DNA of 64,000 nucleotides. Source: an uncultured Verrucomicrobiae bacterium. Lineage in GTDB: Bacteria > Verrucomicrobiota > Verrucomicrobiia > Limisphaerales > UBA11358. The DNA is taken from assembly GCA_963827205.1 (NCBI GenBank), contig CAWHAH010000002.1, positions 194,433 to 258,432 of the forward strand, given 5' to 3'. A model generated the notes under the pieces. That model had not been told where the DNA came from, made no database searches, and saw nothing but the letters and a program-made list of their open reading frames with translations. Within the stretch, counting starts at the first letter, position 1; each line of letters begins with the position of its first letter. A program made the position numbers and the translations under genes. Positions 28,438-51,617 of the stretch are shown one piece after another.

Positions 28438-28465
28438 GTAACTTTCTTGGAGCTGACGGCTCAAA
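28438..28465 (+). promoter_or_regulatory. ECF-type promoter P0 (GTAACTT-N13-GGCTCAAA) upstream of the anti-sigma gene
   Basis: One of five sites with the same -35/-10-like boxes and an identical 13-nt spacer; 19 nt upstream of ATG 28485. Confidence 0.6.
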
Positions 28466-28484
28466 AGAATCAATACGACACACC

Positions 28485-28742
28485 ATGAAGTGCGAGGAAC
28501 TGTTGGCGATGCTGAATGAATACGTGGACGGCACGATTGATCCTGCCGTCTGCGAAGATTTTGAGAAGCACATGGCCGGATGCAATCCCTGCCAGGTGGT
28601 CGTGGACAACATTCGCAAGACCATTACGCTTTACAAGGCCGGCAAACCCTACGAATTGCCGGTGCAGTTCCGCGAACGGCTCCACAATGTCCTGCGGCAG
28701 CGTTGGAAGGAAACCCATGCCAGGCCAAAGCACGGAAAATAA
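28485..28742 (+). CDS. zinc-binding (ZAS, HxxxCxxC) anti-sigma factor, cytoplasmic
   Basis: 85 aa from ATG 28485 (MKCEELLAMLNEYVDG); HMAGCNPC = H-x3-C-x2-C; no TM segment. A TTG at 28326 would add 53 aa. Confidence 0.7.
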   Translation: MKCEELLAMLNEYVDGTIDPAVCEDFEKHMAGCNPCQVVVDNIRKTITLYKAGKPYELPVQFRERLHNVLRQRWKETHARPKHGK

Positions 28743-28747
28743 CAGCC

Positions 28748-29125
28748 ATGCACTGGGGTTTTATATTGATTGCCGGGTTGGTGGTGGCGGCGACACTGGC
28801 GCTGAAACGTGTGGGATTGGTTTCGGCGGAAACGGCCCGGGCTTATCTGAAACAAGGTGCGCTCGTCGTGGACGTGCGCAGCACTGAAGAATTCAAAGCC
28901 GGACACCTGTCCAGCGCAATCAACATGCCGCTGAACGAATTGCAAACCAGCGCCATCCGCCGCGTGCCGGATCAAGACCAGGTTCTACTGTTGCACTGTC
29001 TGAGCGGGACACGCAGTGGTTTAGCGAAACGGAGGCTCAAGGGCATGGGCTACAACAACGTCTTCAATCTCGGCTCGCTCACTCGTGCTCGGAAAATCGC
29101 CGGCACCAGCAGCGGTGTCGCGTAA
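28748..29125 (+). CDS. rhodanese-domain sulfurtransferase with N-terminal TM helix
   Basis: 125 aa from ATG 28748; active-site loop HCLSGTR (CxxxxR). Confidence 0.8.
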   Translation: MHWGFILIAGLVVAATLALKRVGLVSAETARAYLKQGALVVDVRSTEEFKAGHLSSAINMPLNELQTSAIRRVPDQDQVLLLHCLSGTRSGLAKRRLKGMGYNNVFNLGSLTRARKIAGTSSGVA

Positions 29126-29137
29126 AATGGAGTCACA

Positions 29138-29737
29138 ATGGACGCCGCCTTTTGGAACAACCGCTACGCCGTCGCCAGCCATGTTTATGGTGAGACGCCT
29201 AATGCTTTCGTGGCGGAAGTCGCGCCGGAAATTCCCGCCGGGCCGGTGTTGTGCCTGGCCGAAGGCGAGGGACGCAATGCCGTTCATCTTGCCACTCTTG
29301 GCCACCGTGTGACCGCCGTGGACCAGTCAGAGGTCGGACTGACCAAAGCGCGGCGGCTGGCCAAAACGCGCGGCGTGAAAATCGAAACGGTGATGACTGA
29401 TCTGGCCGATTACACCATCGCCGCCAGCGCCTGGGCGGGCATCGTCGCAACGTTTGCGCATCTGCCGCCGGCCTTGCGACGACGGGTTCATCGCGACGCG
29501 GTGGCGGGGCTGCAGCCCGGCGGCGTGTTCATCCTCGAAGCCTACACGCCGGCGCAACTGGCGTTCGGCACTGGCGGACCGAAATCACCCGAATTGCTCA
29601 TGACCCTGGCCGGTCTCCGCGACGAACTTTCAGGATTGGACTTGCTGATTGGACGCGAGATTGAACGCGAAGTCATCGAAGGCGGCGGGCATACCGGCCG
29701 CGGCGCGGTAGTGCAAATTCTCGCCCGGCGGCTTTGA
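29138..29737 (+). CDS. class I SAM-dependent methyltransferase (TehB/TPMT-like)
   Basis: 199-aa ORF; LCLAEGEGRNAVHLA motif I and GGVFILE post-I motif. Confidence 0.75.
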   Translation: MDAAFWNNRYAVASHVYGETPNAFVAEVAPEIPAGPVLCLAEGEGRNAVHLATLGHRVTAVDQSEVGLTKARRLAKTRGVKIETVMTDLADYTIAASAWAGIVATFAHLPPALRRRVHRDAVAGLQPGGVFILEAYTPAQLAFGTGGPKSPELLMTLAGLRDELSGLDLLIGREIEREVIEGGGHTGRGAVVQILARRL

Positions 29738-29787
29738 AGGCAGCCGCTTTCGGGCTGATTCTCATCAAACCGCAATTTGAACGCCGC

Positions 29788-30630
29788 TTAACGCTCAAAT
29801 TCAAACCGGCGGCCCACGCCGGGTGCGGCGCAGCGTCCGGGAAAACTTTCCCACAACCGCGCGACAGCCGCTGCGCCGGTGCAGTGCGCCGGCACGAGCA
29901 GCGGAATCTTCCGTTGTTGCAGCGCCTCGACCGTTGCGGCCAGCCGTTCCGGCGAAGCGTTAAGCAGGTGCAGGCCGCCCAGCACGGCGCGAACCGGCCG
30001 GCCGGGATGGAATCCCTGAATATAATCGAGCGTGTTGACCACGCCGGCATGGGCGCAACCCAGCAACACCACGACGCCGTCGGACGTGTCAAAAAACACC
30101 GCCTGATCGTCCCGCACCAGATCGGGCTGCGTGGCGCGTTCGTCCAGAAAGAAGCGTCCGCCCGGATCCTCGTAAGGTGTGTGGCGGGGAATTTCTCCAG
30201 TGACGAACAAGCCTTTGACCACCTCCGTGCAGGTTCGCGTTTCAATAATCCGCGCTTGATGGTGCATGAGAAAAGCGTGGCTGGCTTCGGGCAGACCGAT
30301 AAAACGCGGCGTGCCATCGGGTTGAAGGCTGAATTTCGGTTCCCGCGCCGCCGGGTGCAGGAAAACCGGAGGACACGACGAAGCTGCGACCACTGCCGCC
30401 AGACCGCCAGTGTGGTCGTAATGGCCGTGGCTCAAGACGATGGCGTCGAGCCGGTCCAGGCCAATGCCGAGCTGGCGGGCGTTTTCGACCAGCAAATTCG
30501 TCTGCCCGGTATCGAACAAGACCTGATGCGATCCGAATTGAATGTGCCAGGCCAGTCCGTGTTCGGCCTTGAGGCCGCGCTCGTGGACCGAATTTTCCAC
30601 CAGAACGGTGATGCTGATTTTTTGGCTCAT
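29788..30630 (-). CDS. MBL-fold metallo-hydrolase
   Basis: 280-aa ORF with HGHYDHTGG metal motif; N-terminus ITVLVEN..GLKAEHGLA is typical of the family found beside NifX-like genes. Confidence 0.8.
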   Translation of the reverse strand: MSQKISITVLVENSVHERGLKAEHGLAWHIQFGSHQVLFDTGQTNLLVENARQLGIGLDRLDAIVLSHGHYDHTGGLAAVVAASSCPPVFLHPAAREPKFSLQPDGTPRFIGLPEASHAFLMHHQARIIETRTCTEVVKGLFVTGEIPRHTPYEDPGGRFFLDERATQPDLVRDDQAVFFDTSDGVVVLLGCAHAGVVNTLDYIQGFHPGRPVRAVLGGLHLLNASPERLAATVEALQQRKIPLLVPAHCTGAAAVARLWESFPGRCAAPGVGRRFEFER

Positions 30631-31067
30631 GCGGGTTTCATGAATTTGCCGGTGGCACTCGCCTTGACCGTGCCGCCCTGCGAGAGTTTGGCGTGCAATT
30701 GAAACAGCCCTTGAGAGTCATCCTCCACCCAAGCCCGCAGCAGCGACTCTTCAGCAGCGACAACGCCGGCATGGTAACGGACTTTTAATTCTACGGTCAA
30801 ACCGCGAATTCCCCGCGCGAAGAGGCAGTTGGTCATTGCGCCGTCGAGCAACGCAGCAATCACGCCTCCGTGCAGTAAACCCGGATACCCCTCCAGCGCG
30901 CAGTGGCCAAGAAAATTTGCGCTCACGCTGCCGTCCGGCTGTGGCGTGTAGCGCAGCGCCAGCCCCATCGGATTCGACCCGCTGCACACAAAACAAAACG
31001 GATGCGCCTCCGCTTGCATGTTTTGGAAGCGGGTTTGAATGCTGTCGGGTGCAGGCGAGTTCGTCAT
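30627..31067 (-). CDS. PaaI-family (hotdog) thioesterase
   Basis: CFVCSGSNPMGLAL and LHGGVIAALLD motifs; ATG 31019 is an alternative start; 4-nt overlap with the MBL gene. Confidence 0.7.
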   Translation of the reverse strand: MTNSPAPDSIQTRFQNMQAEAHPFCFVCSGSNPMGLALRYTPQPDGSVSANFLGHCALEGYPGLLHGGVIAALLDGAMTNCLFARGIRGLTVELKVRYHAGVVAAEESLLRAWVEDDSQGLFQLHAKLSQGGTVKASATGKFMKPA

Positions 31068-31078
31068 GGGGTTGAGCA

Positions 31079-31094
31079 AAGCAGCGGCAATGCC
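31079..31094 (-). promoter_or_regulatory. candidate sigma-54 promoter (TGGCAT-N5-CTGCT) for the thioesterase/MBL operon
   Basis: Minus strand reads TGGCATtgccgCTGCT with canonical GG-N10-GC spacing. It is divergent from the sigma-54 activator gene, and the shared 12-nt motif lies ~125 nt upstream. Confidence 0.5.
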
Positions 31095-31192
31095 ATCGGT
31101 GCAAAACCGTTGTTGCCCGTTGAAAACCCGCCATTTCGCACAAACTGCGGCATGGTTAAGCGTGCAAGACCCCACGATTTCCCCGACTGACC

Positions 31193-31204
31193 GTGGCAAA
31201 ATGC
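31193..31204. promoter_or_regulatory. candidate enhancer (UAS) site GTGGCAAAATGC, inside palindrome TGGCA-N3-TGCCA
   Basis: Exact 12-mer shared with 32949..32960, in the same orientation and at a similar distance relative to each sigma-54 promoter candidate. Confidence 0.45.
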
Positions 31205-31230
31205 CATTGCGAACCCGGCCCCGATGGCGG

Positions 31231-32586
31231 ATGATGGAATGGCGGATTCGCCTCCGCGCCCAAATGCAGGAAACGCTTCATAACCAGTTGCTCGATTCGG
31301 TGCCCGACGGTGTGTTCACCGTGGACGCCGATTGGCGCGTCACCTTTTTCAATCGCGCCGCCGAGCAGATCACCGGCATCCGCCAGCAAGAGGCGCTGGG
31401 CCGGCGCTGTTGTGGTGTGTTCCGCGCCTCCATCTGCGAAACCGCCTGCGCGTTGAAGCAAACGCTGGCCACCCGCCGGCCCGTGGCCAACAAGGTCGTC
31501 TATATTGTGAACGCGCGGGGCGAGCGCATCCCGATCAGCATCTCCACCGCCGCACTCACGGATGCGCGCGGCAAAACCATCGGCGGCGTGGAGAGTTTCC
31601 GCGACCTGCGATTGGTGAACGAACTGCGCCACGAAGCCGAGCAACAGGATTCGTTTTCGGACATCATCGGGCGCAGCGCAGCGATGCGGCAATTGTTTGA
31701 TCTGCTGCCGCCCGTGGCCGAGAGCGACAGCACGGTGCTCGTGGAAGGCCCCAGCGGCACGGGCAAGGAACTGTTTGCCCGGGCCATCCATCAGCTTTCG
31801 CGTCGGCACGCGAAGAAGTTCATCGCTCTCAACTGTGGCGCGCTGCCGGACACCTTGCTGGAAAGCGAATTGTTCGGCTACAAAGCCGGCGCGTTCACTG
31901 ACGCACGCAAGGACAAACCTGGCCGCTTCGCGCTGGCCGAGGGCGGAACCATCTTTCTGGACGAAATCGGCGACATCTCGCCGGCCATGCAAACACGGTT
32001 GTTACGCGTATTGCAGGAGCGCGTTTATGAACCGCTCGGCGGCGTGGAAACCCTGCGCTGCAACGTGCGGGTGATCGCCGCATCGAACAAGCCGCTCCAG
32101 GAGCTGGTGAAGGAGGGAAAGTTTCGTGAAGACCTGTTTTATCGCGTGCATGTGGTCCGGCTGGAACTGCCGCCGCTGCGCGAGCGCCGCGAGGATATCC
32201 CCCTGTTGGTTGACCACTTCGTAGCACGATACAACCGCCTCAAGGGACGGGACGTTGCCGGTGTGTCCGATGCCGCCCTCGCGCGGCTGATGGAACATGA
32301 TTTTCCCGGCAATATTCGCGAACTGGAGAACATCATCGAACACGCCTTCGTGCTCTGTCGCAGCGGCCTGATTGAGTTGTCGCACCTGCCGCCGCATCTG
32401 CGCGGCGCGGAAGACGAAGTCCGCTCCGGGCTGCCGTCCGGCCTGACGCTGGTGGCGATGGAAAAGCTGCTCATCCGCGACGCATTGCGGCGGCACGAAG
32501 GAAATCGTGCCGCTGCCGCCCGCGAACTGGGCATTGACGTGAGCACGCTGTTTCGGAAAATCAAGGCGCTGAAATTAAAAGGCTGA
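31231..32586 (+). CDS. sigma-54-dependent Fis-family transcriptional activator with N-terminal PAS domain
   Basis: PAS (VPDGVFTVDADWRVTFFNRAAEQITG), AAA+ Walker A GPSGTGKE, GAFTDA loop, C-terminal HTH AAARELGIDVSTLFRKI. Start is ambiguous (31201, 31231 or 31264). Confidence 0.85.
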   Translation: MMEWRIRLRAQMQETLHNQLLDSVPDGVFTVDADWRVTFFNRAAEQITGIRQQEALGRRCCGVFRASICETACALKQTLATRRPVANKVVYIVNARGERIPISISTAALTDARGKTIGGVESFRDLRLVNELRHEAEQQDSFSDIIGRSAAMRQLFDLLPPVAESDSTVLVEGPSGTGKELFARAIHQLSRRHAKKFIALNCGALPDTLLESELFGYKAGAFTDARKDKPGRFALAEGGTIFLDEIGDISPAMQTRLLRVLQERVYEPLGGVETLRCNVRVIAASNKPLQELVKEGKFREDLFYRVHVVRLELPPLRERREDIPLLVDHFVARYNRLKGRDVAGVSDAALARLMEHDFPGNIRELENIIEHAFVLCRSGLIELSHLPPHLRGAEDEVRSGLPSGLTLVAMEKLLIRDALRRHEGNRAAAARELGIDVSTLFRKIKALKLKG

Positions 32587-32613
32587 AAGCCCAAAAGATG
32601 ATAACATAGAACC

Positions 32614-32889
32614 ATGCTGAACGAGCACGACCAGGATCTTCTTCTGCGTTGCCGCCGCCTCGGCCACGAGGTGACTTTCGGCTATTGCCCGCGAGAAACA
32701 GGCGGAAAGCCCTGCCGCCTGATTCTGGACTGCTGGTGGGAACAATTTGACGTGCGCTCCTTCCTGCAGGCGCATCTGTCGAAGGAGGACATGGCCCAAG
32801 TCGAGCGCCGCCAGCGCCTCTCCCCCTCCCAGCAAGATGTTGAGCCTGGTGGAGATAATCCAGCAGGCAAAGGATCGGCTGAAGCGTAA
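32614..32889 (+). CDS. small Cys-containing hypothetical protein
   Basis: 91-aa ORF 27 nt after the activator stop; Cys pattern C-x12-C-x9-C-x6-C followed by WW; no family recognised. Confidence 0.45.
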   Translation: MLNEHDQDLLLRCRRLGHEVTFGYCPRETGGKPCRLILDCWWEQFDVRSFLQAHLSKEDMAQVERRQRLSPSQQDVEPGGDNPAGKGSAEA

Positions 32890-32948
32890 ACCATGACACT
32901 CCCCCCGGCGGTGACGCAGATTGCGCTGGATCGCTCCCGTTACCCGTT

Positions 32949-32960
32949 GCATTTTGCCAC
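32949..32960. promoter_or_regulatory. candidate enhancer (UAS) site GCATTTTGCCAC
   Basis: Exact reverse complement of 31193..31204; ~120 nt upstream of the predicted start of the 33049 promoter candidate. Confidence 0.45.
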
Positions 32961-33048
32961 TAAGCACACTCTCTCTGCTTGGATCAATAATTACAGTCCC
33001 CCCTGATTTCAAAGGAAATTTCGATTTGTCTGCCAGCCAATTGGGGGC

Positions 33049-33064
33049 TGGCATGAATCCCGCA
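33049..33064 (+). promoter_or_regulatory. candidate sigma-54 promoter (TGGCAT-N5-CCGCA) for the NifX-like/def/radical-SAM operon
   Basis: GG-N10-GC spacing is correct but the -12 box is weak, and the predicted start falls within 1-2 nt of GTG 33076. Overlaps palindrome TGCCAGCC-N7-GGCTGGCA. Confidence 0.4.
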
Positions 33065-33075
33065 CTACGGCAAGT

Positions 33076-33504
33076 GTGCTGATTGCCATTCCCGTTTTGC
33101 AGGAACGCATTTCGCCGGTGCTCGACGCTGCGGCGCGGTTGCTTTTGGTTACCCACCGGCGCGGGAAGGAAGTGGCGCGGCGCGAATTTGTTCTTGGTCC
33201 GCTTACGCCGGAAGGACTGGCGCGGAGCGTAGCGGAATTGCGCGTGGATGTGCTGCTCTGCGCCGCACTGTCCAAACAGTTGCTGCGGGCTTTGGAACGG
33301 CGCGGCGTGCGGGTCAAACCGCATCTCTGCGGCGAGGTGGAGTCGGTCTTGCGCGCCTTCGACTGCGGCCATCTCCAGCGGGATGAATTCCGCATGCCGG
33401 GCTGCTGGGGACAACATTCGCACGGCAAATACTGCCGTCATCAGCGTGTTGCTCAGAACGGTAAGCCCAGTGGGAAAGAAACACGAACCCAAATTTCGGC
33501 ATGA
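33076..33504 (+). CDS. NifB/NifX-family (dinitrogenase FeMo-cofactor-binding fold) protein 1
   Basis: 142-aa ORF, GTG start. The (M)LIAIPV N-terminus and VDVLLCAALS match the family; Cys/His-rich C-terminus. Confidence 0.7.
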   Translation: MLIAIPVLQERISPVLDAAARLLLVTHRRGKEVARREFVLGPLTPEGLARSVAELRVDVLLCAALSKQLLRALERRGVRVKPHLCGEVESVLRAFDCGHLQRDEFRMPGCWGQHSHGKYCRHQRVAQNGKPSGKETRTQISA

Positions 33505-33707
33505 CAGCATCACCATCAAATCATCGGCCTGCTGGAAAGCGCAAGGTTCGCAGCGGCAAACGCCACCGGTTCCAAATCACCGGATTGCCCGGCTGGAAAC
33601 GCGCGCAACTGGGTGGGCCCGCGTTTGGCGAAGCAAACTGCAATCTTCCTCCGAAATCACGGAACGCCGAACTCCGGCCCGGCGCGAATGTGTCCGTTGA
33701 ACCATGA
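33501..33707 (+). CDS. small basic hypothetical protein (68 aa)
   Basis: ATGA overlaps with both neighbours (33501-33504 and 33704-33707) argue for translation; pI clearly basic (K/R-rich). Confidence 0.5.
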   Translation: MTASPSNHRPAGKRKVRSGKRHRFQITGLPGWKRAQLGGPAFGEANCNLPPKSRNAELRPGANVSVEP

Positions 33708-34306
33708 ACTCGCCCCAGCCCAACCTCACTTCCAAAGCGGACCCGCCGTCCGAAGGCCGCATATCCCGGCACCGGCTGCATCCGTTGACCCTTGTGCATT
33801 ACCCGGACCCGATGTTGCGGAAGGAGTGCGTGCCGGTGGAACGGTTCGACAGCACGCTGCGGGACATCGCGGACGAGATGACTGCGCTAATGCAGTCCCA
33901 TTCCGGAATCGGCCTGGCCGCGCCGCAGGTTGGACTCGAACAACGGCTGCTGGTGTGCGGCATCGAAACCCAGCTCATTGCCCTGGCCAACGTGCAGATT
34001 CAAGAAGGCACCCAGACGGGGGAATTCGTGGAAGGCTGTCTAAGCCTGCCCGGCATCAAGGTCAACGTCTGGCGTCCGGAGCGCATCCGCGTGAGCGGTT
34101 ATGACGTTCAGGGGCACCGGAGGAGCTTCGCCGCAACCGGCCTGTGGGCGCGGGTGATTCAACACGAACTGGATCACTTGAACGGCGTGCTGATTTGTGA
34201 TTATGGGCATCCGTTGGCCGAAGGCTGCGGGGAATGCCCGCTCACGTTGCCAGCGGTGCTGTTGGAAGAGCGCAAGCACCGGTCACGCCCCTCCCGTTCA
34301 CATTAA
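33704..34306 (+). CDS. def: peptide deformylase paralog with N- and Cys-containing C-terminal extensions
   Basis: All three catalytic motifs are present: GIGLAAPQ, EGCLS, QHELDH. Confidence 0.85.
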   Translation: MNSPQPNLTSKADPPSEGRISRHRLHPLTLVHYPDPMLRKECVPVERFDSTLRDIADEMTALMQSHSGIGLAAPQVGLEQRLLVCGIETQLIALANVQIQEGTQTGEFVEGCLSLPGIKVNVWRPERIRVSGYDVQGHRRSFAATGLWARVIQHELDHLNGVLICDYGHPLAEGCGECPLTLPAVLLEERKHRSRPSRSH

Positions 34307-34316
34307 CGCAACTGCT

Positions 34317-34961
34317 ATGACCAATTCACAAATCGAGAGCCGCCGAAACCATCGCTTGATGAAACAGCGCGAGGCGTTGTTCCGACGCTTCGGCTACGAT
34401 TCGGTGGCAAGCCGCAAGTTCGTTCTTAAGAAAGTCATGCCGTTGCCTGGGCACGTGCTCGAAATCGGCACCGGCAAAGGCCGCTTTCTCGCCGTGCTGG
34501 CGAAGCACGCGGATCGTATCACGACGTTGGACGCGGACGCGAAACAGCAACGCGCGGCAAAGCTGCACATCCGTCAGACGCGGGCTGGCCACCGGATTCG
34601 ATTTATCGTCCATGATGCCGAACATCTGCCTTGGCCTGACGCCAGTTTCGACACCGTGGTCACTGTGAACACTTTTCATCATCTGGCGCGCCCGATGCGG
34701 GTGTTCAAGGAGATGTTGCGGGTGTTAAAGCCGGGCGGGAAACTTGTCTTGAGCGATTTTTCTCCGCGCGGCTTTCAAATTTTCGACAGGATTCACCAAT
34801 TTGAAGGCGGAACGCATCCCCGCCTGAAAAATGGTTTGGCTGGGTTCGCGCACCGGCTTGGCCGGCCCGGCTGGAAAACCAGACGATTTAAAGGATGCAA
34901 TCAAGAGATTCTGGTGGCGACGGCGCCACCCGTCCCAACGAAAGGCAAAAAGCACACATGA
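34317..34961 (+). CDS. class I SAM-dependent methyltransferase (Methyltransf_11 type)
   Basis: 214 aa from ATG 34317; VLEIGTGKGRF motif I and LKPGGKLVLSDF. Confidence 0.8.
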   Translation: MTNSQIESRRNHRLMKQREALFRRFGYDSVASRKFVLKKVMPLPGHVLEIGTGKGRFLAVLAKHADRITTLDADAKQQRAAKLHIRQTRAGHRIRFIVHDAEHLPWPDASFDTVVTVNTFHHLARPMRVFKEMLRVLKPGGKLVLSDFSPRGFQIFDRIHQFEGGTHPRLKNGLAGFAHRLGRPGWKTRRFKGCNQEILVATAPPVPTKGKKHT

Positions 34962-35395: not shown

Positions 35396-35398
35396 GCG

Positions 35399-36292: not shown

Positions 36293-36318
36293 GCCATAAA
36301 CAGGCAACGAATGACACC

Positions 36319-38154: not shown

Positions 38155-38158
38155 AGAC

Positions 38159-41552: not shown

Positions 41553-41580
41553 CGCTGCTTGAGCAACTGAAGGTGCATCT

Positions 41581-42276: not shown

Positions 42277-42282
42277 TCACCC

Positions 42283-43738: not shown

Positions 43739-43745
43739 CACTCCT

Positions 43746-44542: not shown

Positions 44543-44626
44543 ACCCGCCGCTATGAGATTCGTCAGCGCTATTTTGGTTGGCTTGCCACCGGTGAAAACA
44601 GTCGGCGAGCCGGCATGGGACAGATT

Positions 44627-45427
44627 ATGAGCATGAATTTGAGCGCCTGCGAGTTGTTGGAAAAGGTGCGCCGGGTCAGCCCAGTGGTGCATCACTTGAC
44701 CAACTGGGTGACGATTTACGATTGCGCCCAAATCGTTAAAACCCTTGGCGCGTCACCCATCATGGCCCATGCGCCGGAGGAAGCAGCCGAGATGGCCGGG
44801 ATTGCCTCGGCACTCGTGCTCAATATAGGGACGTTGACCGTCGGCATGGTGGAAGCGATGAAGCTGGCAGCGGCCCGCGCGAATCAGAAGGGCATCCCGG
44901 TGGTTCTGGACGTGTGCGGCGCGGGCGCCACGGAATTCCGCGACCGCAAGGCGTTTGAGCTGCTGGATCAGGCCAAAATCAACATCATCAAGGGAAACAC
45001 TTCCGAAATTGCCCGCGTCAGCGGAGCCAAAATCCGAACCAAAGGCGTTGATGCCACTGAAGTCACGGCGGATTTGGAGACGCTGGCTCAAGCACTTGCC
45101 GTTCGCCGCCAAACCACGGTAGTGATCACGGGCCAAGTGGACATTGTGGCCGATGAGCAAGGAATTTATCGCGTCAAAAACGGGGATGCACTGATGACGC
45201 GCGTCGTTGGCACGGGCTGCATGGCCACGTCCATCATCGGCGCTTTCGCCGCCGTTGAGCCTGATTGCAGCAAAGCCGCCGCCTGCGGTTTGGCCTGTTA
45301 CGGGATTGCGGCTGAACTGGCCGCGAAAAAATCGCGCGGCCCGGCGTCATTCAAAGCCGCGTTGTTTGACTGCCTCTACAACCTTGACCCGCCAACCATC
45401 GAAAGGATGCAGCGCATCGAATCATGA
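44627..45427 (+). CDS. thiM: hydroxyethylthiazole kinase
   Basis: VHHLTNWVT, GASPIMA, NIGTL and VVGTGC motifs; ATG 44615 is an alternative start. Confidence 0.85.
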   Translation: MSMNLSACELLEKVRRVSPVVHHLTNWVTIYDCAQIVKTLGASPIMAHAPEEAAEMAGIASALVLNIGTLTVGMVEAMKLAAARANQKGIPVVLDVCGAGATEFRDRKAFELLDQAKINIIKGNTSEIARVSGAKIRTKGVDATEVTADLETLAQALAVRRQTTVVITGQVDIVADEQGIYRVKNGDALMTRVVGTGCMATSIIGAFAAVEPDCSKAAACGLACYGIAAELAAKKSRGPASFKAALFDCLYNLDPPTIERMQRIES

Positions 45428-45915
45428 AGGAGGTATCCGCATTGACCAGCCATTTGCGAGAGCAGATGTGCAAAGTCACTGGCCCGCGTCTGGCGATTCT
45501 GAAAATTCTGCGGCAACATCCGCATCCGCTCGCAAACCGGGACATTCTCTGCCTTCTGCCCAAGGGTCTGTGCGACTTGGCTACGATTTACCGCACGTTG
45601 CATCTGCTGGAGAGAATGGGCATGGTGAAGCGGTTTGATTTCAGTGATGGCGTGGCGCGGTATGAATTGCTGGGCGAGGGCGACGACGGTCATCATCATC
45701 ACCTGGTTTGCACGCACTGCGGCAAGGTGGTTAGAATTGAAGAATGTTTCGTGCGGGAAATGGAAGCCCGTATTGCCGCCGCCAGCGGTTTCGCCGCCGT
45801 GACGCACAAGTTGGAATTTTTCGGGCTATGTCCGCGTTGCCAACTGAAATGGCCGTCATGCCGAAAAGACGTAAGAGGTGAGAAAAACGCTTGCGCGAGA
45901 ATTAGCCAGGACTGA
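45424..45915 (+). CDS. Fur-family metalloregulator (Fur/Zur/PerR; subtype not resolvable)
   Basis: 163-aa ORF; wHTH TIYRTLHLLERMGMV, HHHHLVCTHCG and CPRC Zn site; ATGA overlap with thiM. Confidence 0.85.
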   Translation: MKEVSALTSHLREQMCKVTGPRLAILKILRQHPHPLANRDILCLLPKGLCDLATIYRTLHLLERMGMVKRFDFSDGVARYELLGEGDDGHHHHLVCTHCGKVVRIEECFVREMEARIAAASGFAAVTHKLEFFGLCPRCQLKWPSCRKDVRGEKNACARISQD

Positions 45916-45971
45916 AAACCCTGGCACTTATCCCGGCCGACACATTCCGTAGCCGACTAAAGGGCCATCTT

Positions 45972-45999
45972 GTAACTTTTCCCACCCACGGGGCTCAAT
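45972..45999 (+). promoter_or_regulatory. ECF-type promoter P1 (GTAACTT-N13-GGCTCAAT)
   Basis: 11 nt upstream of ATG 46011; same boxes and spacing as the other four sites. Confidence 0.6.
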
Positions 46000-46010
46000 T
46001 AAGACATAAC

Positions 46011-46169
46011 ATGGAAAGCTTAATCTGGATTTTGGCAGGCGCACTGATAGTCATCAGTGTCTGGCCGGCACAATGCGTCAGTCAATGGTGGCGGTTGTTT
46101 ACGATCCTTGTTGGTGGATCCTTGGTTGTGTCGGGCTTCACTGGCTTTTGTCCGGTGAAGAGTTTTTAA
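46011..46169 (+). CDS. DUF2892 (YgaP-like TM domain) mini-protein, 52 aa
   Basis: Not in the ORF track (under 60 aa); read by hand as MESLIWILAGAL...VVSGFTGFCPVKSF. The GF(T)GFCP motif is typical of DUF2892. Confidence 0.6.
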   Translation: MESLIWILAGALIVISVWPAQCVSQWWRLFTILVGGSLVVSGFTGFCPVKSF

Positions 46170-46193
46170 AGAAAATGCTTGGCGAAAAGGAGG

Positions 46194-46745
46194 ATGATCG
46201 TGAAGTCATTGATGATTAGTGTGCTGATTGGCGGCGGATTGGGAGCGCTGCTCGGCCATTTCGGCAAATGTTCGTCCGGGACTTGTCCGCTGACTTCGAC
46301 GTGGTGGCGCGGTGCCATTTACGGGGCATTGTTGGGCGGCTTGTTTTATTATGTCTCCAGCGGAAGCAGTCCCGCTTCCCTGAATAAATCCACGGCGAAC
46401 GTGAAACTCATCACGGAAGGCCAGTTTGACGCGGAAGTCATCCAGTCGCCTTCGCCCGTCGTGGCGGATTTTTACGCGCCATGGTGTGGGCCATGCAAAA
46501 TCCTGTCGCCCATGCTGGATGAACTGGCGGGAACGCTGACCAATAAAATCAAATTCGTCAAAATCAACGTGGACGAGGCACCCCGGTTGGCACAACGCTT
46601 CAATATTCAGGGCATTCCCACGCTCTTGTTTTTCAAGCACGGCAAGGTCATGGATAGTTTGGTCGGATTACCTCCGGCTGATACGTTGAAAACGCGACTG
46701 GAATCCTTTGCGGGACCAGACACTCCTGCCAAAAACTCTGGTTGA
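46194..46745 (+). CDS. thioredoxin with N-terminal DUF6132-like membrane module (GxCxxGxCPLTS)
   Basis: WCGPC thioredoxin C-domain. The N-domain is homologous to the stand-alone 52007..52174 product. An aaggagg SD favours ATG 46194 or GTG 46200. Confidence 0.8.
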   Translation: MIVKSLMISVLIGGGLGALLGHFGKCSSGTCPLTSTWWRGAIYGALLGGLFYYVSSGSSPASLNKSTANVKLITEGQFDAEVIQSPSPVVADFYAPWCGPCKILSPMLDELAGTLTNKIKFVKINVDEAPRLAQRFNIQGIPTLLFFKHGKVMDSLVGLPPADTLKTRLESFAGPDTPAKNSG

Positions 46746-46802
46746 ATGGCAAGAACCGGGTAAAGTCAGCGTGCCGTTGGTGCAGCCAGCACCGCGGCTG
46801 TT

Positions 46803-47267
46803 ATGAGCAGCAATTTCATCCAACGCGGCGGGCTGTGGGTCGCAGGCCAGAGCGGGCTTCTGTTCGCGGTTATTATTCTCGGCGTGGTCTTCCACGGCGG
46901 CGGAAAGAACCTTCCGATCATGGCCTGCGGCGCGGGTTTTTTCGCGATAGCCCTTGGCTGCGGCCTCGCGGGTGCCGTTGCGTTGGGCCGCAACCTTACC
47001 CCTTTTCCCAAACCATTCACGCACACGCAATTGGTTCAAGGCGGCATCTACGGTCTGATGCGCCACCCGCTTTACACCGCGGTGTTTTGTGGATCGGTCG
47101 GCTGGGCGCTGGTCTGGCAAAGCTGGCCGGCCTTGGTCACTTCATTGGCGCTGGGTGCGTTCTTCGACGCCAAGGCCCGACACGAAGAGCGTTGGTTGCG
47201 GCAGCAATTCCCCGATTATGACGGTTACGCGCAAAAAGTTTGTCGTTTCATTCCCTGGGTTTATTGA
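46803..47267 (+). CDS. isoprenylcysteine carboxyl methyltransferase (ICMT/PEMT)-family membrane methyltransferase
   Basis: 154-aa ORF; GGIYGLMRHPLYTAVF and HEERWLRQQFPDY signatures. Confidence 0.75.
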   Translation: MSSNFIQRGGLWVAGQSGLLFAVIILGVVFHGGGKNLPIMACGAGFFAIALGCGLAGAVALGRNLTPFPKPFTHTQLVQGGIYGLMRHPLYTAVFCGSVGWALVWQSWPALVTSLALGAFFDAKARHEERWLRQQFPDYDGYAQKVCRFIPWVY

Positions 47268-47307
47268 TGGTGCGCGGAGTTGAATTGTCCGGCGGGCCAG
47301 ATGGCTT

Positions 47308-47335
47308 GTAACTTTTCGGAGTCTGGCGGCTCGGA
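47308..47335 (+). promoter_or_regulatory. ECF-type promoter P2 (GTAACTT-N13-GGCTCGGA)
   Basis: 39 nt upstream of ATG 47375. Confidence 0.5.
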
Positions 47336-47374
47336 ATACAGTGAAGCGCCCATGAAAAACGAAGAATAAAACTT

Positions 47375-48268
47375 ATGAAAACACCAACGGCCTTTCATCC
47401 CGCCAGCATTCTCTGCCCCGTAGATTTCAGCGAGCTTTCCGATCTCGCCTTGAAATATGCCGCCGCTGGCGCGCGGGTGTTTGACGCCACGCTCGTGGTG
47501 TTTCACTCGGCGCGGTTCGAGTTGCCTGCCTACTTCACCAGTGCGCAGTCGGAGGCGTTGAAGCGACAACATCGGGAGCAACAAAAGCACGTGAAAGACT
47601 TCCTGCGTCGCCACGCCCGGAAAGTGCTCGGCCAGGCAGCCAGCCGGATTCACCTTCAGTTCGACACGAACGACACGCATCCGGTGGACGCCACCCTGGC
47701 CGCCGCCAGGAAGAGCAAGGCTGGCTTGATTGTGATGGGCACACATGGCCGTGATGGCGCCAAGCGGCTCTGGCTTGGCTCGGTCGCAGAAAATGTGGTC
47801 CGTCAGGCGGATGTCCCGGTATTTATCGTGCGGCAGAAACAGCACGAATTAATCAACCCCTCTGATCCGCAGTCCGCTCCCGGTTTGGCAACCATTCTGT
47901 GCCCGGTCAATTTCAGCGAAACGTCGCGTTCTGCCCTTTGGCACGCCGTGTCCCTGGTCCAACAGTTCAAAGCGCGGTTGATCACCCCGTGCGTCATTGA
48001 ACCCGACGATGAACGGGGTCTTGCCGAAGCCAAACGTGAATTGGCCGCGTGGCTGGATGAAACAACCGCCGGAAAGTGTGATGCTCAAATCGTGACGAAG
48101 CGAGGGCAGGCCGCCGAACAAATCGTGTTGCTTGCGGCCAAAACGAAAGCCGATCTGGTGGTCATGGGCGCACAACGCCGCGCTTCACTTCAGACCTGGC
48201 TTTCAGGTGACACCACGGAATCGGTACTGCGTCACGCCCCGGCCCCGGTGCTCGTCGTGCCGCATTGA
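47375..48268 (+). CDS. tandem universal stress protein (2x UspA domain)
   Basis: 297-aa ORF; two repeats each ending ..GSV(A/T)E.V.R.A..PV..V. Confidence 0.85.
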   Translation: MKTPTAFHPASILCPVDFSELSDLALKYAAAGARVFDATLVVFHSARFELPAYFTSAQSEALKRQHREQQKHVKDFLRRHARKVLGQAASRIHLQFDTNDTHPVDATLAAARKSKAGLIVMGTHGRDGAKRLWLGSVAENVVRQADVPVFIVRQKQHELINPSDPQSAPGLATILCPVNFSETSRSALWHAVSLVQQFKARLITPCVIEPDDERGLAEAKRELAAWLDETTAGKCDAQIVTKRGQAAEQIVLLAAKTKADLVVMGAQRRASLQTWLSGDTTESVLRHAPAPVLVVPH

Positions 48269-48333
48269 ACTCATGTTCGGTTTGACAACCCGAAGAAAGA
48301 ACCGGCAGCAGGCGTGATGCGGTGAATCAGTTT

Positions 48334-49266
48334 TCATGCAGCCGCGCCCGGCGGACGGGGAGTTCGCGCGTTCAACACCTCCAGAAATTTTGCCAGCGCC
48401 GGGCTTTGGCTCCGACCGCGGATGCGCTGCAAATGGAGCGGACGCTGGATGGTCAAATCTTTAAGCGGGAGGGTGCTCAAAGAGCCGGCCTGCAATTCCA
48501 AGGCGACAATCAGTCGCGACACAATGGCGATGCCGGCTCCGGCGGCGACCAGATTCTTGATTGCTTCCGGGCTGGCGAGCGACAGCAGCGGCTTGATCTT
48601 GAGGCCATGCCGGCGCAAGGCCCGCTCCACCACCGCGCGCGTGCCGGAACCTTCCTCGCGCAAAATAAACGGCTCGCGGCAAATTTCCCGGACGGTCACG
48701 CGGCGTTTTTTGAGCAGCGGATGGCCGGCGGGCGCGATGGCCACCAATTCGTCCTTGAAAAACACCGTGGATTCCAGTTCCTCGGATTCCACCGGCCCCT
48801 CGGTCATGCCCAGTTCAATCGTGCCGGCCAGCAACGCTTTCTGAATGTGCCCGGTGTTGGCCATTTCGATTTGCAATTCGATTTCGGGAAACCTCCGGTG
48901 AAACTCCGCGAGCACGCCGGGCAGCAGATAGCCGCCAATCGTCAGGCTCGCGCCGATGGCCAGCCGTCCGCGTTTCAAGCCGCGATACTCCTCAATCGCC
49001 CGCGCCGCGTCGTTTTCCAGCGAGCGCCAGCGTTGCGCGTAGTCCGCCAGGATTTTTCCCGCCTCGGTCAGCCGGCAGCCGCGCGGCAGGCGTTCCAGCA
49101 GGCGCACGCCCAGCGCGTCCTCCAATTCGGCGATTTGTTTGGACACCGCCGGCTGGCTCACGCGCGCCGCCTCGGCGCCGCGACTGATCCCGCCAGCTTG
49201 GGCAACCACGTGAAACAAGGCCAGATGATTTCGATTCATGGCATAATTATAAAGTATGGCTGGCAT
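48334..49266 (-). CDS. LysR-family transcriptional regulator
   Basis: 310-aa ORF; N-terminal HTH LALFHVVAQAGGISRGAEAARVSQPAVSKQI; divergent from the rhodanese-DUF2892 gene. Confidence 0.9.
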   Translation of the reverse strand: MPAILYNYAMNRNHLALFHVVAQAGGISRGAEAARVSQPAVSKQIAELEDALGVRLLERLPRGCRLTEAGKILADYAQRWRSLENDAARAIEEYRGLKRGRLAIGASLTIGGYLLPGVLAEFHRRFPEIELQIEMANTGHIQKALLAGTIELGMTEGPVESEELESTVFFKDELVAIAPAGHPLLKKRRVTVREICREPFILREEGSGTRAVVERALRRHGLKIKPLLSLASPEAIKNLVAAGAGIAIVSRLIVALELQAGSLSTLPLKDLTIQRPLHLQRIRGRSQSPALAKFLEVLNARTPRPPGAAA

Positions 49267-49317
49267 ATAAACAATGTATTTGTGCTATGTATAAGACCGG
49301 CTACCTTTGACCGCAAT

Positions 49318-49905
49318 ATGAAGGTTTCACTTACGATCAACGCCAACAACGTGACGCCGCACGAACTCTACGAACTGCTCGACGAAAACGCCGATGTCGA
49401 GCTGCTCGATGTCCGCACCCCCGGCGAACACGCCGCCGCCCATGTGCCGGGCGCAAGGCTCCTGCCGCTCGACGATCTCCACCCGCCGGCCTTTTTGAAT
49501 CAGCGACGCGCGCCGGAGAAACCCATTTATGTGATTTGCCAGACTACCCGGCGTGCGCGCAAAGCCATCAAAAAATTTCAGAGCGCGGGTTTTGACCGCT
49601 GCGTGCTGGTCGAAGGCGGGACGCAGGCGTGGCTGGCCGCCGGCCTGCCGGTGAATCGCGGCGCCAGCACGGTGCTGCCGCTGATGCGCCAGGTGCATAT
49701 CGCCGTCGGCCTGATTTCCGGCACGGGTGCGGTGCTGGCGCTCACGGTGAATCCGCATTTTGCATTCGTGCCGCTGTTCACGGGCTACGGATTGCTGGTG
49801 GCAGGCTTGACTGGTTTCTGCGGACTGGCACTGTTGCTGGCCAAAATGCCGTGGAACCGTTTGGGCAAGGCGCGCGCCAATGCCGGCTGTGAACCGAAAC
49901 GCTGA
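49318..49905 (+). CDS. rhodanese fused to DUF2892 membrane domain (YgaP-like sulfurtransferase)
   Basis: 195 aa from ATG 49318; active loop CQTTRR; C-terminal LVAGLTGFCGLA. Confidence 0.8.
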   Translation: MKVSLTINANNVTPHELYELLDENADVELLDVRTPGEHAAAHVPGARLLPLDDLHPPAFLNQRRAPEKPIYVICQTTRRARKAIKKFQSAGFDRCVLVEGGTQAWLAAGLPVNRGASTVLPLMRQVHIAVGLISGTGAVLALTVNPHFAFVPLFTGYGLLVAGLTGFCGLALLLAKMPWNRLGKARANAGCEPKR

Positions 49906-49944
49906 CAATTCCAAGCAATCGCGTTTCGTCGCGCCATTGAATTT

Positions 49945-50700
49945 ATGTTCAGCCTTGCGCTTGTTTTGGCGGCGTTGATCGGTCTTTCGCTGGGACTGCT
50001 CGGCAGCGGTGGCTCGATCATCACCCTGCCGGTGCTCGTTTATGTCGCAAAAGTCCCCGCGCAACAAGCTGTCGGCATGTCGCTGGTCATCGTGGGCGGC
50101 ACGAGCGCGCTTGGCACGCTGCTCAATTTGCGGCAAGGCGCTTTCGATTGGCGGGCGGGGGCGTTCTTTTCCGTGAGCGGAATGGCCGGCGCATTCGTCG
50201 GCGCAAAATTCACCCATCTGGTTTCCGCGCCGATGCTGATGTTTCTCTTTGGCGCGCTGATGCTCGTCGTCGGCATCCGGCTGTTGCGAAAAGGCGAGGT
50301 GAAGGCGGCGGCGCAGGAATGTCGTCCATTGCGCTGTCTCGCGGTCGGCATCGCCGTGGGCGTGCTGACGGGATTTCTCGGCGTTGGCGGCGGGTTTCTC
50401 ATTTTGCCCGCGCTCGTTTTGTTTGCCGGGCTGGAAATGAAGCCGGCCATCGGCACGTCGCTGGCCATCATCGCCATTAATTGCGTTGGTGGTCTGGTCG
50501 GCCAACTGCGCTATGCAAACTTTGACTGGCGACTCACGCTCGGATTTCTGCTGGTGGCGATGGCGGGAATGATTGCCGGTGCGGCGCTCACAAAAAAATT
50601 ATCCGCCGCCGTCTTGCGGCAGGGCTTCGCCTGGTGTGTGGTGCTGCTGGGCGTCGCGCTGGTCGCGTGGAACTGGCTGGCTTTGATCGGCGCGCGTTAA
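49945..50700 (+). CDS. TauE/SafE-family sulfite/organosulfonate exporter
   Basis: 251-aa ORF, 7-8 TM helices, two GxGGG(F/S) repeats (GSGGSIITLPVLVY, GVGGGFLILP). Confidence 0.85.
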   Translation: MFSLALVLAALIGLSLGLLGSGGSIITLPVLVYVAKVPAQQAVGMSLVIVGGTSALGTLLNLRQGAFDWRAGAFFSVSGMAGAFVGAKFTHLVSAPMLMFLFGALMLVVGIRLLRKGEVKAAAQECRPLRCLAVGIAVGVLTGFLGVGGGFLILPALVLFAGLEMKPAIGTSLAIIAINCVGGLVGQLRYANFDWRLTLGFLLVAMAGMIAGAALTKKLSAAVLRQGFAWCVVLLGVALVAWNWLALIGAR

Positions 50701-50736
50701 GTCCTTCAGAAGGCGCCGACACGCGTTCACAGTCTA

Positions 50737-50764
50737 GTAACTTTCTCGGCCCTCCCGGCTCAAT
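50737..50764 (+). promoter_or_regulatory. ECF-type promoter P3 (GTAACTT-N13-GGCTCAAT)
   Basis: 17 nt upstream of the 50782 start. Confidence 0.55.
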
Positions 50765-50781
50765 ACAATCGAAGCGACAAA

Positions 50782-51468
50782 TTGCTCGCAGCCATGAAAT
50801 CAATTCGTCCACTTTTGTGGTTTTTGTGGATGGCCGCAGTGCTGGCTTTGAAGGCGGCTGATCCGGCGGTTCAATCGCCGCCAGTTGATTCGCTGTCCCC
50901 AATCTTGTCCGCACCGGAACCTTCACGTGCCGACATCTGGCAGGGCGGAATTGGCGAGGGATTTCGATCCACAACGCAGACCATAAACTTCATTGCCGGG
51001 GCCAGTCAGGGGGTGGCCGCTTTCGGCAGCCGACTTCAGCATGACCTCGTCCTGGTCAGCCTTTCCTATGGTCATATGTTCGGTCCGGTGAGGGGCGAGG
51101 GCCACTGGTATCGCGGAAATTGGGAATGGCGCGGGGAGCTTTTCACCGGCGCCGAATTCTCGCCCGGCACGACTTGGGGCGTGGGGCTGACGCCGCATCT
51201 GCGCTATGATTTCGCCACCGGCACACGCTGGATTCCGTTTGCCGACATCGGCGCGGGTGTGACGGCGACCGGCGAGCGCCCGCCGGATTTGGGCGGCGCG
51301 TTTGAATTCAATCTCCAGGCCGCCACGGGCGTGCAATGGTTTATTCGGGACAACGTGGCCGTAACGGTTGAAGCTCGCTACCTGCACGTGTCCAGCGCCA
51401 GCATCTACACGCCAAACTTGGGCTTAAACACCATTGCCGGACTGGTCGGCGTCACGTGGTTTTTTTAA
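50782..51468 (+). CDS. acyloxyacyl hydrolase / PagL-like outer-membrane beta-barrel (lipid A deacylase family)
   Basis: 228-aa ORF with signal peptide, alternating beta pattern, terminal VGVTWFF, and HVSSA (His..Ser) motif near the C-terminus. Confidence 0.65.
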   Translation: MLAAMKSIRPLLWFLWMAAVLALKAADPAVQSPPVDSLSPILSAPEPSRADIWQGGIGEGFRSTTQTINFIAGASQGVAAFGSRLQHDLVLVSLSYGHMFGPVRGEGHWYRGNWEWRGELFTGAEFSPGTTWGVGLTPHLRYDFATGTRWIPFADIGAGVTATGERPPDLGGAFEFNLQAATGVQWFIRDNVAVTVEARYLHVSSASIYTPNLGLNTIAGLVGVTWFF

Positions 51469-51589
51469 CGTGGAAAGCTTGCCCTTCCGCCCTGTTCCGG
51501 TTCCCACTGCCGGCTTCCGCGTTTTATCGCAGCCGGGGAAGAAGAGATGCCCAACCTTTTCAAGCCGGTTTAGCTCGCGCACATACTGT

Positions 51590-51617
51590 GTAACTTTTCC
51601 GGCTCTCGCGGTTCAGT
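51590..51617 (+). promoter_or_regulatory. ECF-type promoter P4 (GTAACTT-N13-GGTTCAGT)
   Basis: 13 nt upstream of the trxA ATG at 51631. Confidence 0.55.

Follow-up and report, generated by a model that had tools for sequence, protein, structure and literature searches.

We describe here a promoter-like motif that occurs five times in a 64,000-nt stretch of DNA from an uncultured Verrucomicrobiae bacterium (contig CAWHAH010000002.1; the whole stretch is called the window below), together with the probable stress regulon to which it belongs. The window, which is 58.5% G+C, encodes an extracytoplasmic function (ECF, group IV) sigma factor followed by a small zinc-associated anti-sigma (ZAS) factor, and the motif, GTAACTT-N13-GGYTC, lies in the gap between these two genes (P0) and again at four further places (P1 to P4; Table 1). 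An earlier note, made by reading this DNA alone, had proposed that the five sites are ECF promoters that outline a thiol- or sulfur-stress regulon, and it is this proposal that is considered here.

Sites and genes in the window

Exact matches to the motif begin at positions 28438, 45972, 47308, 50737, and 51590, all on the + strand and all co-oriented with the genes that follow, and 100 dinucleotide-preserving shuffles of the window contained none; the five sites are thus present just as the earlier note had listed them. Each lies between genes, with 109, 57, 41, 37, and 122 nt (P0 to P4) separating it from the upstream stop codon, and 19, 11, 39, 17/29, and 13 nt separating the end of the 8-nt second box from the start codon, in agreement with the claim that the sites are intergenic and 11–39 nt upstream of their genes. 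A weight matrix made from the five sites scores them at 43–49 bits and gives the runner-up position, on either strand, 9 bits, and there is therefore no sixth or degenerate site in the window, including the regions upstream of the sigma gene and of the YgaP-type rhodanese and TauE genes. Four other GTAACTT heptamers (at 1241, 5120, 16821 on the minus strand, and 17306) have no second box. The spacers and flanks of the five copies are unrelated, with only the two boxes in common, and no Rfam family was found anywhere in the window or overlapping the sites. Position -1 is T at four of the five sites; the A of P3 at this position (window position 50736) possibly makes it a weaker promoter. At P1 only the interval 45999–46011 separates the -10 box from the gene, and several targets start a mere ~11–20 nt beyond this box (as do those at the YgaP-TM sites of L021, L035, L037, L046, and L049 among the related loci described below), which would leave their mRNAs with very short leaders or almost none. 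No obvious Shine-Dalgarno sequence could be seen at these short-leader targets.

Table 1. Motif copies and genes discussed in the text, with window coordinates (USP, universal stress protein; TM, transmembrane; SAM, S-adenosylmethionine; RND, resistance-nodulation-division)
Feature	Position	Strand	Remarks
P0: TGTAACTT-N13-GGCTCAAA	28437..28465	+	sigma/anti-sigma intergenic gap
P1: TGTAACTT-N13-GGCTCAAT	45971..45999	+	equivalent sites in relatives precede YgaP-TM/DUF2892 genes
P2: TGTAACTT-N13-GGCTCGGA	47307..47335	+	upstream of tandem USP
P3: GTAACTT-N13-GGCTCAAT	50737..50764	+	A at position -1; upstream of PagL
P4: TGTAACTT-N13-GGTTCAGT	51589..51617	+	equivalent sites in relatives precede TrxA/DUF6132/YgaP-TM-efflux operons
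ECF (group IV) sigma factor	27673..28329	+	Pfam Sigma70_r2, Sigma70_r4_2; no motif copy upstream
Soluble 85-aa ZAS anti-sigma factor, P0 gene 1	28485..28742	+	Pfam zf-HC2, E=7e-10
Single-domain rhodanese with N-terminal hydrophobic segment, P0 gene 2	28748..29125	+	Pfam Rhodanese; NCBIfam PspE/GlpE-like
Class I SAM methyltransferase, P0 gene 3	29138..29737	+	Pfam Methyltransf_25/11; TehB (TehB-like N-terminal part)
52-aa YgaP-like TM protein (DUF2892) with FCP motif, P1	46011..46169	+	Pfam PF11127
DUF6132 membrane domain fused to thioredoxin (WCGPC), P1	46194..46745	+	Pfam DUF6132, Thioredoxin; NCBIfam thioredoxin above cut-off
Membrane methyltransferase, PEMT/ICMT family, P1	46803..47267	+	Pfam PEMT, ICMT
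Tandem USP, P2	47375..48268	+	Pfam Usp x2; monocistronic here, convergent LysR gene next
LysR regulator	48334-49266	-	NCBIfam best match 'selenium metabolism-associated LysR', 228 bits against a cut-off of 250
YgaP-type rhodanese-TM protein, 195 aa	49318-49905	+	divergent from LysR; no motif
TauE	49945-50700	+	divergent from LysR; no motif in window
PagL-family outer-membrane beta-barrel, putative lipid A deacylase, P3	50794..51468	+	Pfam PagL, E=6e-18
TrxA (WCGPC), P4	51631..51987	+	NCBIfam TIGR01068, 114 bits against a cut-off of 96.8; Pfam
Small DUF6132 membrane protein (CPTGACPLT), P4	51992..52174	+	Pfam DUF6132
Small YgaP-like TM protein (DUF2892) with Cys-rich tail (SCC...SCC), P4	52195..52428	+	Pfam PF11127
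TolC-like channel, P4	52425-53735	+	Pfam OEP
Membrane-fusion protein, P4	53732-54940	+	Pfam HlyD_D23
RND pump, P4	55010-58264	+	Pfam ACR_tran

The gene content that had been read from the translations agrees with Pfam and NCBIfam, except that the ICMT-like gene is not the open reading frame (ORF) at 46742–47221, which has no Pfam match, but the PEMT/ICMT gene in another frame at 46803–47267, whose product scores below the cut-off of the NCBIfam isoprenylcysteine methyltransferase model. The 527-aa ORF at 48322–49905 was also considered, as a large rhodanese fusion, and discarded, its first ~330 residues being the antisense of the minus-strand LysR gene. The active-site loop of the P0 rhodanese can be read as CLSGTR. 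The PagL gene has an alternative TTG start at 50782, and its homologs carry the source names lipid A 3-O-deacylase or acyloxyacyl hydrolase. Every NCBIfam subtype model (heavy-metal or multidrug) scores the RND pump far below its cut-off. Because the genes for LysR, the YgaP-type rhodanese, and TauE, which together fill the interval before P3, all lack the motif, P2 would drive the tandem USP alone in this genome, and the unit ends where the earlier note had ended it. We note that TauE lies behind the ECF motif in relatives, and here seems to have moved under LysR control.

The motif in related genomes

The sigma protein retrieved 80 orthologous loci with 68–91% identity, nearly all labelled Verrucomicrobiota, Limisphaerales, or subdivision-3 metagenome-assembled genomes, along with near-identical contigs of the same species. 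Enrichment, strand bias, and conservation at orthologous loci had been put forward in the earlier note as checks on the motif, and within these loci all three speak in its favor. The 1.21 Mb of sequence around the 80 sigma genes contains 76 exact matches and 119 with at most one mismatch, against 0.1 and 4.7 respectively in Markov-resampled sequence, and 114 of these 119 share the strand of the sigma gene. In 67 of the 77 loci with enough sequence the motif occurs within 600 nt beyond the sigma stop codon, usually at 10–45 nt, and it is followed by an anti-sigma ortholog in 64 loci, the ATG of which falls at +48, counted from the first base of the motif, in 40 loci and between +42 and +50 in 59.

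The same gene families recur behind the motif: of the 119 sites, 100 have, within 200 nt and on the same strand, the start of a gene homologous to one of the window regulon. Apart from the anti-sigma gene, the first genes encode DUF2892 proteins (22 sites, eight of them of the 46011–46169 type and 14 of the 52195–52428 type), DUF6132-thioredoxin (seven), TrxA (three), DUF6132 (three), and a rhodanese (one), and the operons continue into TolC, membrane-fusion protein, and RND pump, both methyltransferases, and TauE. A rhodanese gene follows the anti-sigma gene in most related loci, class I methyltransferase orthologs come behind the motif in 13, and PEMT/ICMT homologs are present in 20, mostly behind the soluble methyltransferase; the efflux genes follow the motif and a YgaP-TM gene in more than 20. 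The geometry of the motif is rigid, the spacer being N13 at 103 sites, N14 at one, and N11, N12, or N15 at none, while the spacer sequence itself drifts between genomes. Positions that the search had left unconstrained are also kept in the related genomes (T at -1 in 100 of 100 sites, T at 8–9 in 92%, and C at 20 in 85%), and the 100 sites yield the extended consensus TGTAAC(T/c)TTTt-N9-..gCGGCTC(A/g)(A/G)T.

Orthologs of the USP and PagL genes were followed separately. The five USP orthologs come from metagenomes (L087–L091, 83–93% identity) and lie in the order ICMT-like gene, exact motif, extra anti-sigma copy, USP, and TauE. Among PagL orthologs from four genomes (65–79% identity), an exact motif is directly upstream of the gene in two (L121 and L123) and at the operon head in the other two (L122 and L124). 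With these orthologs also carrying the motif, all five window units are independently supported. At locus L123 the complete system forms a single island that has four motifs and comprises genes for the sigma and anti-sigma factors, a CoA-disulfide-reductase-rhodanese (CoADR-rhodanese), a rhodanese, a short-chain dehydrogenase/reductase, PagL, TrxA, DUF6132, DUF2892, TolC, the membrane-fusion protein, and the RND pump; the entire regulon likewise sits beside the sigma gene in other relatives such as L002 and L007, and in the present genome this island is split by ~17 kb of unrelated genes. Relatives have further motif-linked genes, including those for a Pyr_redox_2 and rhodanese protein (the CoADR-rhodanese, which is CoA-persulfide-reductase-like), a flavoprotein like sulfide:quinone oxidoreductase (SQR), TusA with an FlpD-like protein, C_GCAxxG_C_C proteins, a YeiH-like transporter, and TauE.

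Several loci depart from the common arrangement. Extra or displaced anti-sigma copies stand within the regulon of some relatives (L087–L091; for example at 704–940 of L088, where the order is motif, second anti-sigma gene, USP, and TauE), and such orphan paralogs could alter the feedback strength. An SQR-like gene lies between the sigma and anti-sigma genes at ~13320 of L044, and L084, a near-identical contig, has the sigma/anti-sigma/rhodanese/methyltransferase module twice, in inverted orientation (9213–14305), which may be a true duplication or an artefact of assembly. In L010, a relative with no adjacent anti-sigma gene, a different ECF-like motif, GAAACC-N16-CGTCTA, follows the sigma gene at ~8930 and hints at rearrangement with another ECF system.

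Sigma factor, anti-sigma factor, and circuit

The motif is bipartite and asymmetric, with an invariant AAC, fixed spacing, and a consistent position and orientation upstream of its targets, and it can be read as a -35 box, TGTAAC(T/c)TTT, and a -10 region, cGGCTC(A/g)(A/G)T. With GGC counted as spacer, the distance from GTAACTT to TCAAT is 16 nt, and the architecture is nearly identical to that of the experimentally derived E. coli sigmaE motifs, GGAACTTTT and (T/C)GGTCAAAA, in which GGAACTT and TCAAA are also 16 nt apart (PMC1312014), although position -34 is here T and not G. The role of the AAC in the -35 elements of group IV sigma factors, and the contacts of the E. coli sigmaE region 4 with -35 DNA, have been described (PMC1540707). 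The identification of the five sites as putative ECF promoters, made in the earlier note, is consistent with all of these features.

The sigma factor has only the sigma2 and sigma4 domains and scores 118.6 bits with the NCBIfam sigma70-ECF model (TIGR02937; cut-off 42.9). A profile of its orthologs (79, and clade-specific, such that it may miss very distant ECFs) matched this gene alone in the window, in line with the statement that no other ECF sigma is encoded there. The closest structures in the PDB are SigW (3.7e-22), AlgU (1.3e-21), and RpoE (1.5e-19), followed by M. tuberculosis SigH (1.9e-12) and the SigR sigma4 domain (4.9e-4). Filing under the RsrA, RpoE, or SigW equivalogs was considered and rejected, all scores being below the cut-offs; the sigma factor scores 106.9 bits against 236 with the RpoE equivalog (TIGR02939). 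The NCBIfam model nearest to it, NF008888, gives 176.7 bits against 204. Its closest relatives bear generic names only (among the best 120 of 4786 matches with E<=1e-20), and the main text of Casas-Pastor 2021 makes no mention of Verrucomicrobia or of rhodanese or thioredoxin contexts.

The sigma4 recognition helix, NxKVRLLRAR, is invariant in the 79 orthologs, and its residues can be set against those with which E. coli sigmaE contacts its promoter. R176, which reads the -35 G, is kept; R171, which reads the G opposite the -31 C, is replaced by K; F175, which makes a van der Waals contact at -33', is replaced by L; and S172, which reads the -34 G, is replaced by V where position -34 is T. We infer that the helix residues fit the -35 bases, and this fit, together with the constant adjacency of motif and gene, makes the neighboring sigma the most likely reader of the motif. 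The adjacent sigma/ZAS pair, which the earlier note had singled out, is thus a well-placed candidate, the motif standing right beside it in 67 of the 77 loci.

The anti-sigma factor is encoded beside the sigma and matches PF13490 (zf-HC2) with 39.2 bits against a cut-off of 22.2. It is 85 residues long here and 78–94 in the orthologs, and has no hydrophobic segment; being without a transmembrane or periplasmic part, it would not sense the envelope directly. Residues C3, H29, C33, and C36, the last three in an HxxxCxxC arrangement, never vary across the window protein and 64 orthologs, and C23 is kept in 98%, one extracted sequence being a 44-aa fragment. The distance from C3 to H29 is 26 residues, the same as in RsrA and MseR, and the spacing of the four residues is that of RsrA C11/H37/C41/C44 and MseR C4/H30/C34/C37 (PMC2893595), with C23 aligned to RsrA C31. 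The nearest PDB entry is the RsiW anti-sigma domain, and there are weak matches to the RsiW and DdvA domains. The protein is therefore best described as a soluble ZAS, outside the RsrA equivalog, whose thiolates could do the sensing.

The regulon units listed in the earlier note are supported; the note had overlooked that the sigma gene is not under its own motif: in none of 78 orthologs do the 400 nt before the sigma gene contain a copy (at most one mismatch). Most ECF sigma factors are positively autoregulated (PMC7826278), whereas this one lacks the promoter through which it would be. A simple scan for terminators gave no candidate on the + strand in the gap that separates the sigma and anti-sigma genes. 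With the sigma-dependent promoter placed between the two, induction would raise the inhibitor and not the sigma. In the resting state transcription from an ordinary promoter ahead of the sigma gene would run through both genes at a low level, with the sigma held inactive by the anti-sigma; thiol-reactive stress in the cytoplasm would modify the anti-sigma ligands C3, C23, C33, and C36 and free the sigma, which would then transcribe the anti-sigma, rhodanese, and methyltransferase genes (P0), those for the DUF2892 protein, DUF6132-thioredoxin, and membrane methyltransferase (P1), the tandem USP (P2), the PagL-type outer-membrane protein (P3), and TrxA, DUF6132, DUF2892, and the TolC-RND efflux system (P4). 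Comparative genomics backs this predicted five-unit output. The additional anti-sigma and the induced thioredoxins would reset the switch rapidly, with negative feedback only; the layout is directly visible in the loci, and it is from the layout that we infer this consequence. In C. glutamicum a SigH-dependent promoter drives only rshA, for which a fast shut-off of the response has been proposed (PMC3489674).

Inducing signal, known systems, and neighboring genes

We consider it likely that P0 to P4 are promoters read by the ECF sigma at 27673–28329, that the ZAS protein is the switch, and that the genes behind the sites form its regulon, with a thiol or reactive-sulfur trigger the probable one. 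The conserved core consists of rhodaneses, two kinds of thioredoxin, small Cys-containing membrane proteins, and TauE, to which relatives add CoADR-rhodanese, SQR-like, and TusA proteins. It is from this gene content that the signal is probably thiol or reactive-sulfur stress, namely sulfide-derived persulfides and polysulfides or disulfide stress, and the label given to the regulon in the earlier note fits it well. The cst operon, which is persulfide-responsive, encodes SQR, CstA, CstB, and TauE (PMC12934615), and the regulon resembles such operons. The pairing of one soluble with one membrane methyltransferase recalls the H2S and methanethiol S-methyltransferases MddH and MddA (PMC11445057) by general type only, and offers a lead.

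There are several observations that weigh against this interpretation. The sigma factor is nearest to the envelope-stress sigmas SigW, AlgU, and RpoE and not to SigR, and another ECF sigma elsewhere in the genome may be the true reader of the motif. The regulon includes genes of envelope or generic stress (PagL, RND efflux, and USP), and neither thioredoxin reductase nor methionine sulfoxide reductase was seen in it. The best NCBIfam match of the anti-sigma factor is antisig_RsrA (TIGR03988), with a score of 33.6 bits against a cut-off of 62.5, and the RsrA residues that tune its sensitivity to diamide (PMC3177212), namely the acidic pair E39 and E40 ahead of the first CxxC Cys and the Leu and charged residue L45 and E46 behind it, correspond to A31, G32, Q37, and V38. 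The same Cys-His-Cys-Cys ligand set is present in RsiW, which is reported to be insensitive to thiol oxidants (PMC3177212).

Three other explanations were considered. One retains the sigma, promoters, and regulon and supposes that the trigger is envelope damage, a toxic xenobiotic, or thiophilic metals and metalloids (tellurite, selenite, Cd, Hg, or Cu), such that the thioredoxins and Cys-rich membrane proteins would handle the metal or electrophile and the RND pump would export the toxicant. The SigW/AlgU/RpoE-like sigma with its sigmaE-like promoter, the PagL, efflux, and USP members, and the absence of the RsrA redox-determinant residues are all compatible with such a trigger, as are the TehB-like similarity of the soluble methyltransferase, the CusB/CzcB-type similarity of the membrane-fusion protein, the SCC...SCC tail of a DUF2892 protein, and a neighboring LysR gene whose best match, below cut-off, is of the selenium metabolism-associated type. 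However, a soluble anti-sigma factor offers no direct means of sensing the envelope, the RND pump cannot be assigned to the heavy-metal (CusA/CzcA) type, and the conserved core of rhodaneses, thioredoxins, TauE, CoADR-rhodanese, SQR-like protein, and TusA belongs to sulfur-transfer and persulfide chemistry and not to metal resistance. We therefore regard a trigger of this kind as unlikely, and favor the thiol or reactive-sulfur signal.

A different question is whether the motif is read by the adjacent sigma at all. Verrucomicrobiota genomes usually carry many ECF sigmas, one of which, or a DNA-binding protein for which the motif is an operator, could act on all five sites with the adjacent pair as a mere target. 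The lack of a motif upstream of the sigma gene would suit this explanation, given how commonly ECF sigmas autoregulate (PMC7826278), although a sigma-dependent promoter that serves only the anti-sigma has a proven precedent in C. glutamicum. The motif is tied to this pair in a fixed position in 67 of 77 loci, its consensus has no dyad or direct-repeat symmetry of the sort typical of operators, and the sigma4 helix residues appear to fit its -35 bases, all of which make another reader very improbable. As for the five copies being chance matches or dispersed-repeat or mobile-element remnants with no regulatory role, the small copy number in a single window is all that could be said for it; no matches are expected by chance, the copies share nothing but their boxes, and position and orientation are kept across ~80 genomes. 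Shuffling, resampling, and ortholog conservation refute such an origin, and we give it practically no credence.

The likely combination of ECF sigma, ZAS switch, and thiol- or sulfur-linked regulon has parallels in several known systems, none of which it matches throughout. SigH-RshA of C. glutamicum (ECF12; thiol-oxidative and heat stress) is similar in that a small soluble ZAS anti-sigma follows the sigma, the sigma is not under its own promoter type and the sigma-dependent promoter serves the anti-sigma side only, and the thioredoxin system is in the regulon (PMC3489674). In contrast, the present system is from another phylum and another ECF clade, with a sigma nearer SigW/AlgU/RpoE, and its regulon consists mainly of rhodaneses, DUF2892/DUF6132 membrane proteins, and an RND pump in place of mycothiol, heat-shock, and SOS genes. 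The promoter of the SigH type is GGAA-N18/19-GTT, whereas that seen here is a sigmaE-like GTAACTT-N16-TCAAT, and thus neither the sigma sequence nor the promoter type is that of ECF12 (SigR/SigH). The likeness to SigR/RsrA that the earlier note had drawn stands as an analogy of logic and not as family membership. A soluble anti-sigma with identical Cys/His spacing and a further Cys aligned with RsrA C31, and thioredoxin targets that would close a homeostatic loop, are common to both, but the sigma is SigW/AlgU/RpoE-like, the anti-sigma is below the RsrA equivalog cut-off and does not keep E39/E40/L45/E46, and SigR of S. coelicolor is positively autoregulated from sigRp2 whereas the present sigma is not.

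The sigmaE-MseR pair of N. meningitidis also consists of a Gram-negative ECF sigma and a small cytoplasmic ZAS with Cys4/His30/Cys34/Cys37, and its TCAAA resembles the -10 box found here (PMC2893595), although the meningococcal -35 box is GTAAGGTT, the operon is autoregulated with a tiny regulon (msrAB), and no oxidant was found to induce it. Relative to E. coli RpoE, with which the sigma shares recognition-helix residues as described, the anti-sigma is a soluble ZAS and not a membrane protein like RseA, and the regulon is not one of outer-membrane protein or lipopolysaccharide assembly; the system is thus not of the RpoE (ECF02) envelope-stress type. The gene content overlaps that of the persulfide-responsive CstR/cst, BigR, SqrR, and FisR systems, which likewise have rhodanese and TusA sulfurtransferases, SQR, CoA-persulfide-reductase-like enzymes, and a TauE exporter (PMC12934615; PMC5823870), but those are controlled by one-component repressors or a sigma54 activator, whereas the controller here would be an ECF sigma/anti-sigma pair.

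The system is a new, uncharacterized, and well-supported case of an ECF/ZAS stress regulon, and we place it within this conventional kind of circuit because mechanistically nothing departs from it; its promoter is sigmaE-like, its ligand geometry RsrA-like, and its feedback layout like that of C. glutamicum. It offers a testable regulon, with one sigma, one anti-sigma, a 29-nt promoter model, and ~20 target gene families, for an abundant uncultured clade, the Limisphaerales-type Verrucomicrobiota of peat, soil, and lakes, in which no stress regulon has been described. It also gives a first functional context to DUF6132, for which no paper was found in the literature searched, and to the stand-alone DUF2892/YgaP-TM proteins, both being tied to thioredoxin, rhodanese, and RND efflux. 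The compact set of sigma, anti-sigma, and promoter could serve as an orthogonal ECF switch in synthetic biology.

A further-reaching reading, which we offer tentatively and hold to be possible but doubtful, is that this is the first ECF sigma/zinc-thiolate anti-sigma switch that senses reactive sulfur, with a sensor that would not be of the classical disulfide or envelope-stress type, and that its targets make up an unrecognized membrane-associated pathway for the removal of sulfane sulfur and sulfide. The small Cys-containing DUF2892 and DUF6132 membrane proteins, a membrane-tethered thioredoxin, and a dedicated RND exporter would be parts of this pathway, and the two methyltransferases might S-methylate H2S or methanethiol as MddA and MddH do. 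In the literature searched, no paper was found that connects sulfane sulfur sensing with ECF or anti-sigma factors, and if reactive sulfur is the signal, an ECF-type sensor would join a field of repressors and one sigma54 activator.

Several other genes were noticed near these units. Beside the sigma operon (29788–32586) are genes for a metallo-beta-lactamase-fold protein (29788–30630, minus strand), a 4HBT thioesterase (30627–31199, minus strand), and a PAS-containing sigma54-dependent activator (31039–32586, + strand), an arrangement reminiscent of FisR-type sulfide-responsive systems with a persulfide dioxygenase, for which the metallo-beta-lactamase-fold protein is a candidate only. The genes immediately before P1 (43653–45915) all lack the motif and encode a divergent thioredoxin-like protein, in which no CxxC was seen at the usual position, a Nitro_FeMo-Co-type protein, hydroxyethylthiazole kinase, and a Fur-family regulator. 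Beyond the P4 operon (58233–61432) there is a second RND-type ORF (59549–61432, minus strand), whose match to the AcrB profile is confined to the C-terminal 60%. A 398-aa ORF without a Pfam match follows downstream of it on the same strand, and the RND-type ORF is possibly a split or truncated pump gene.

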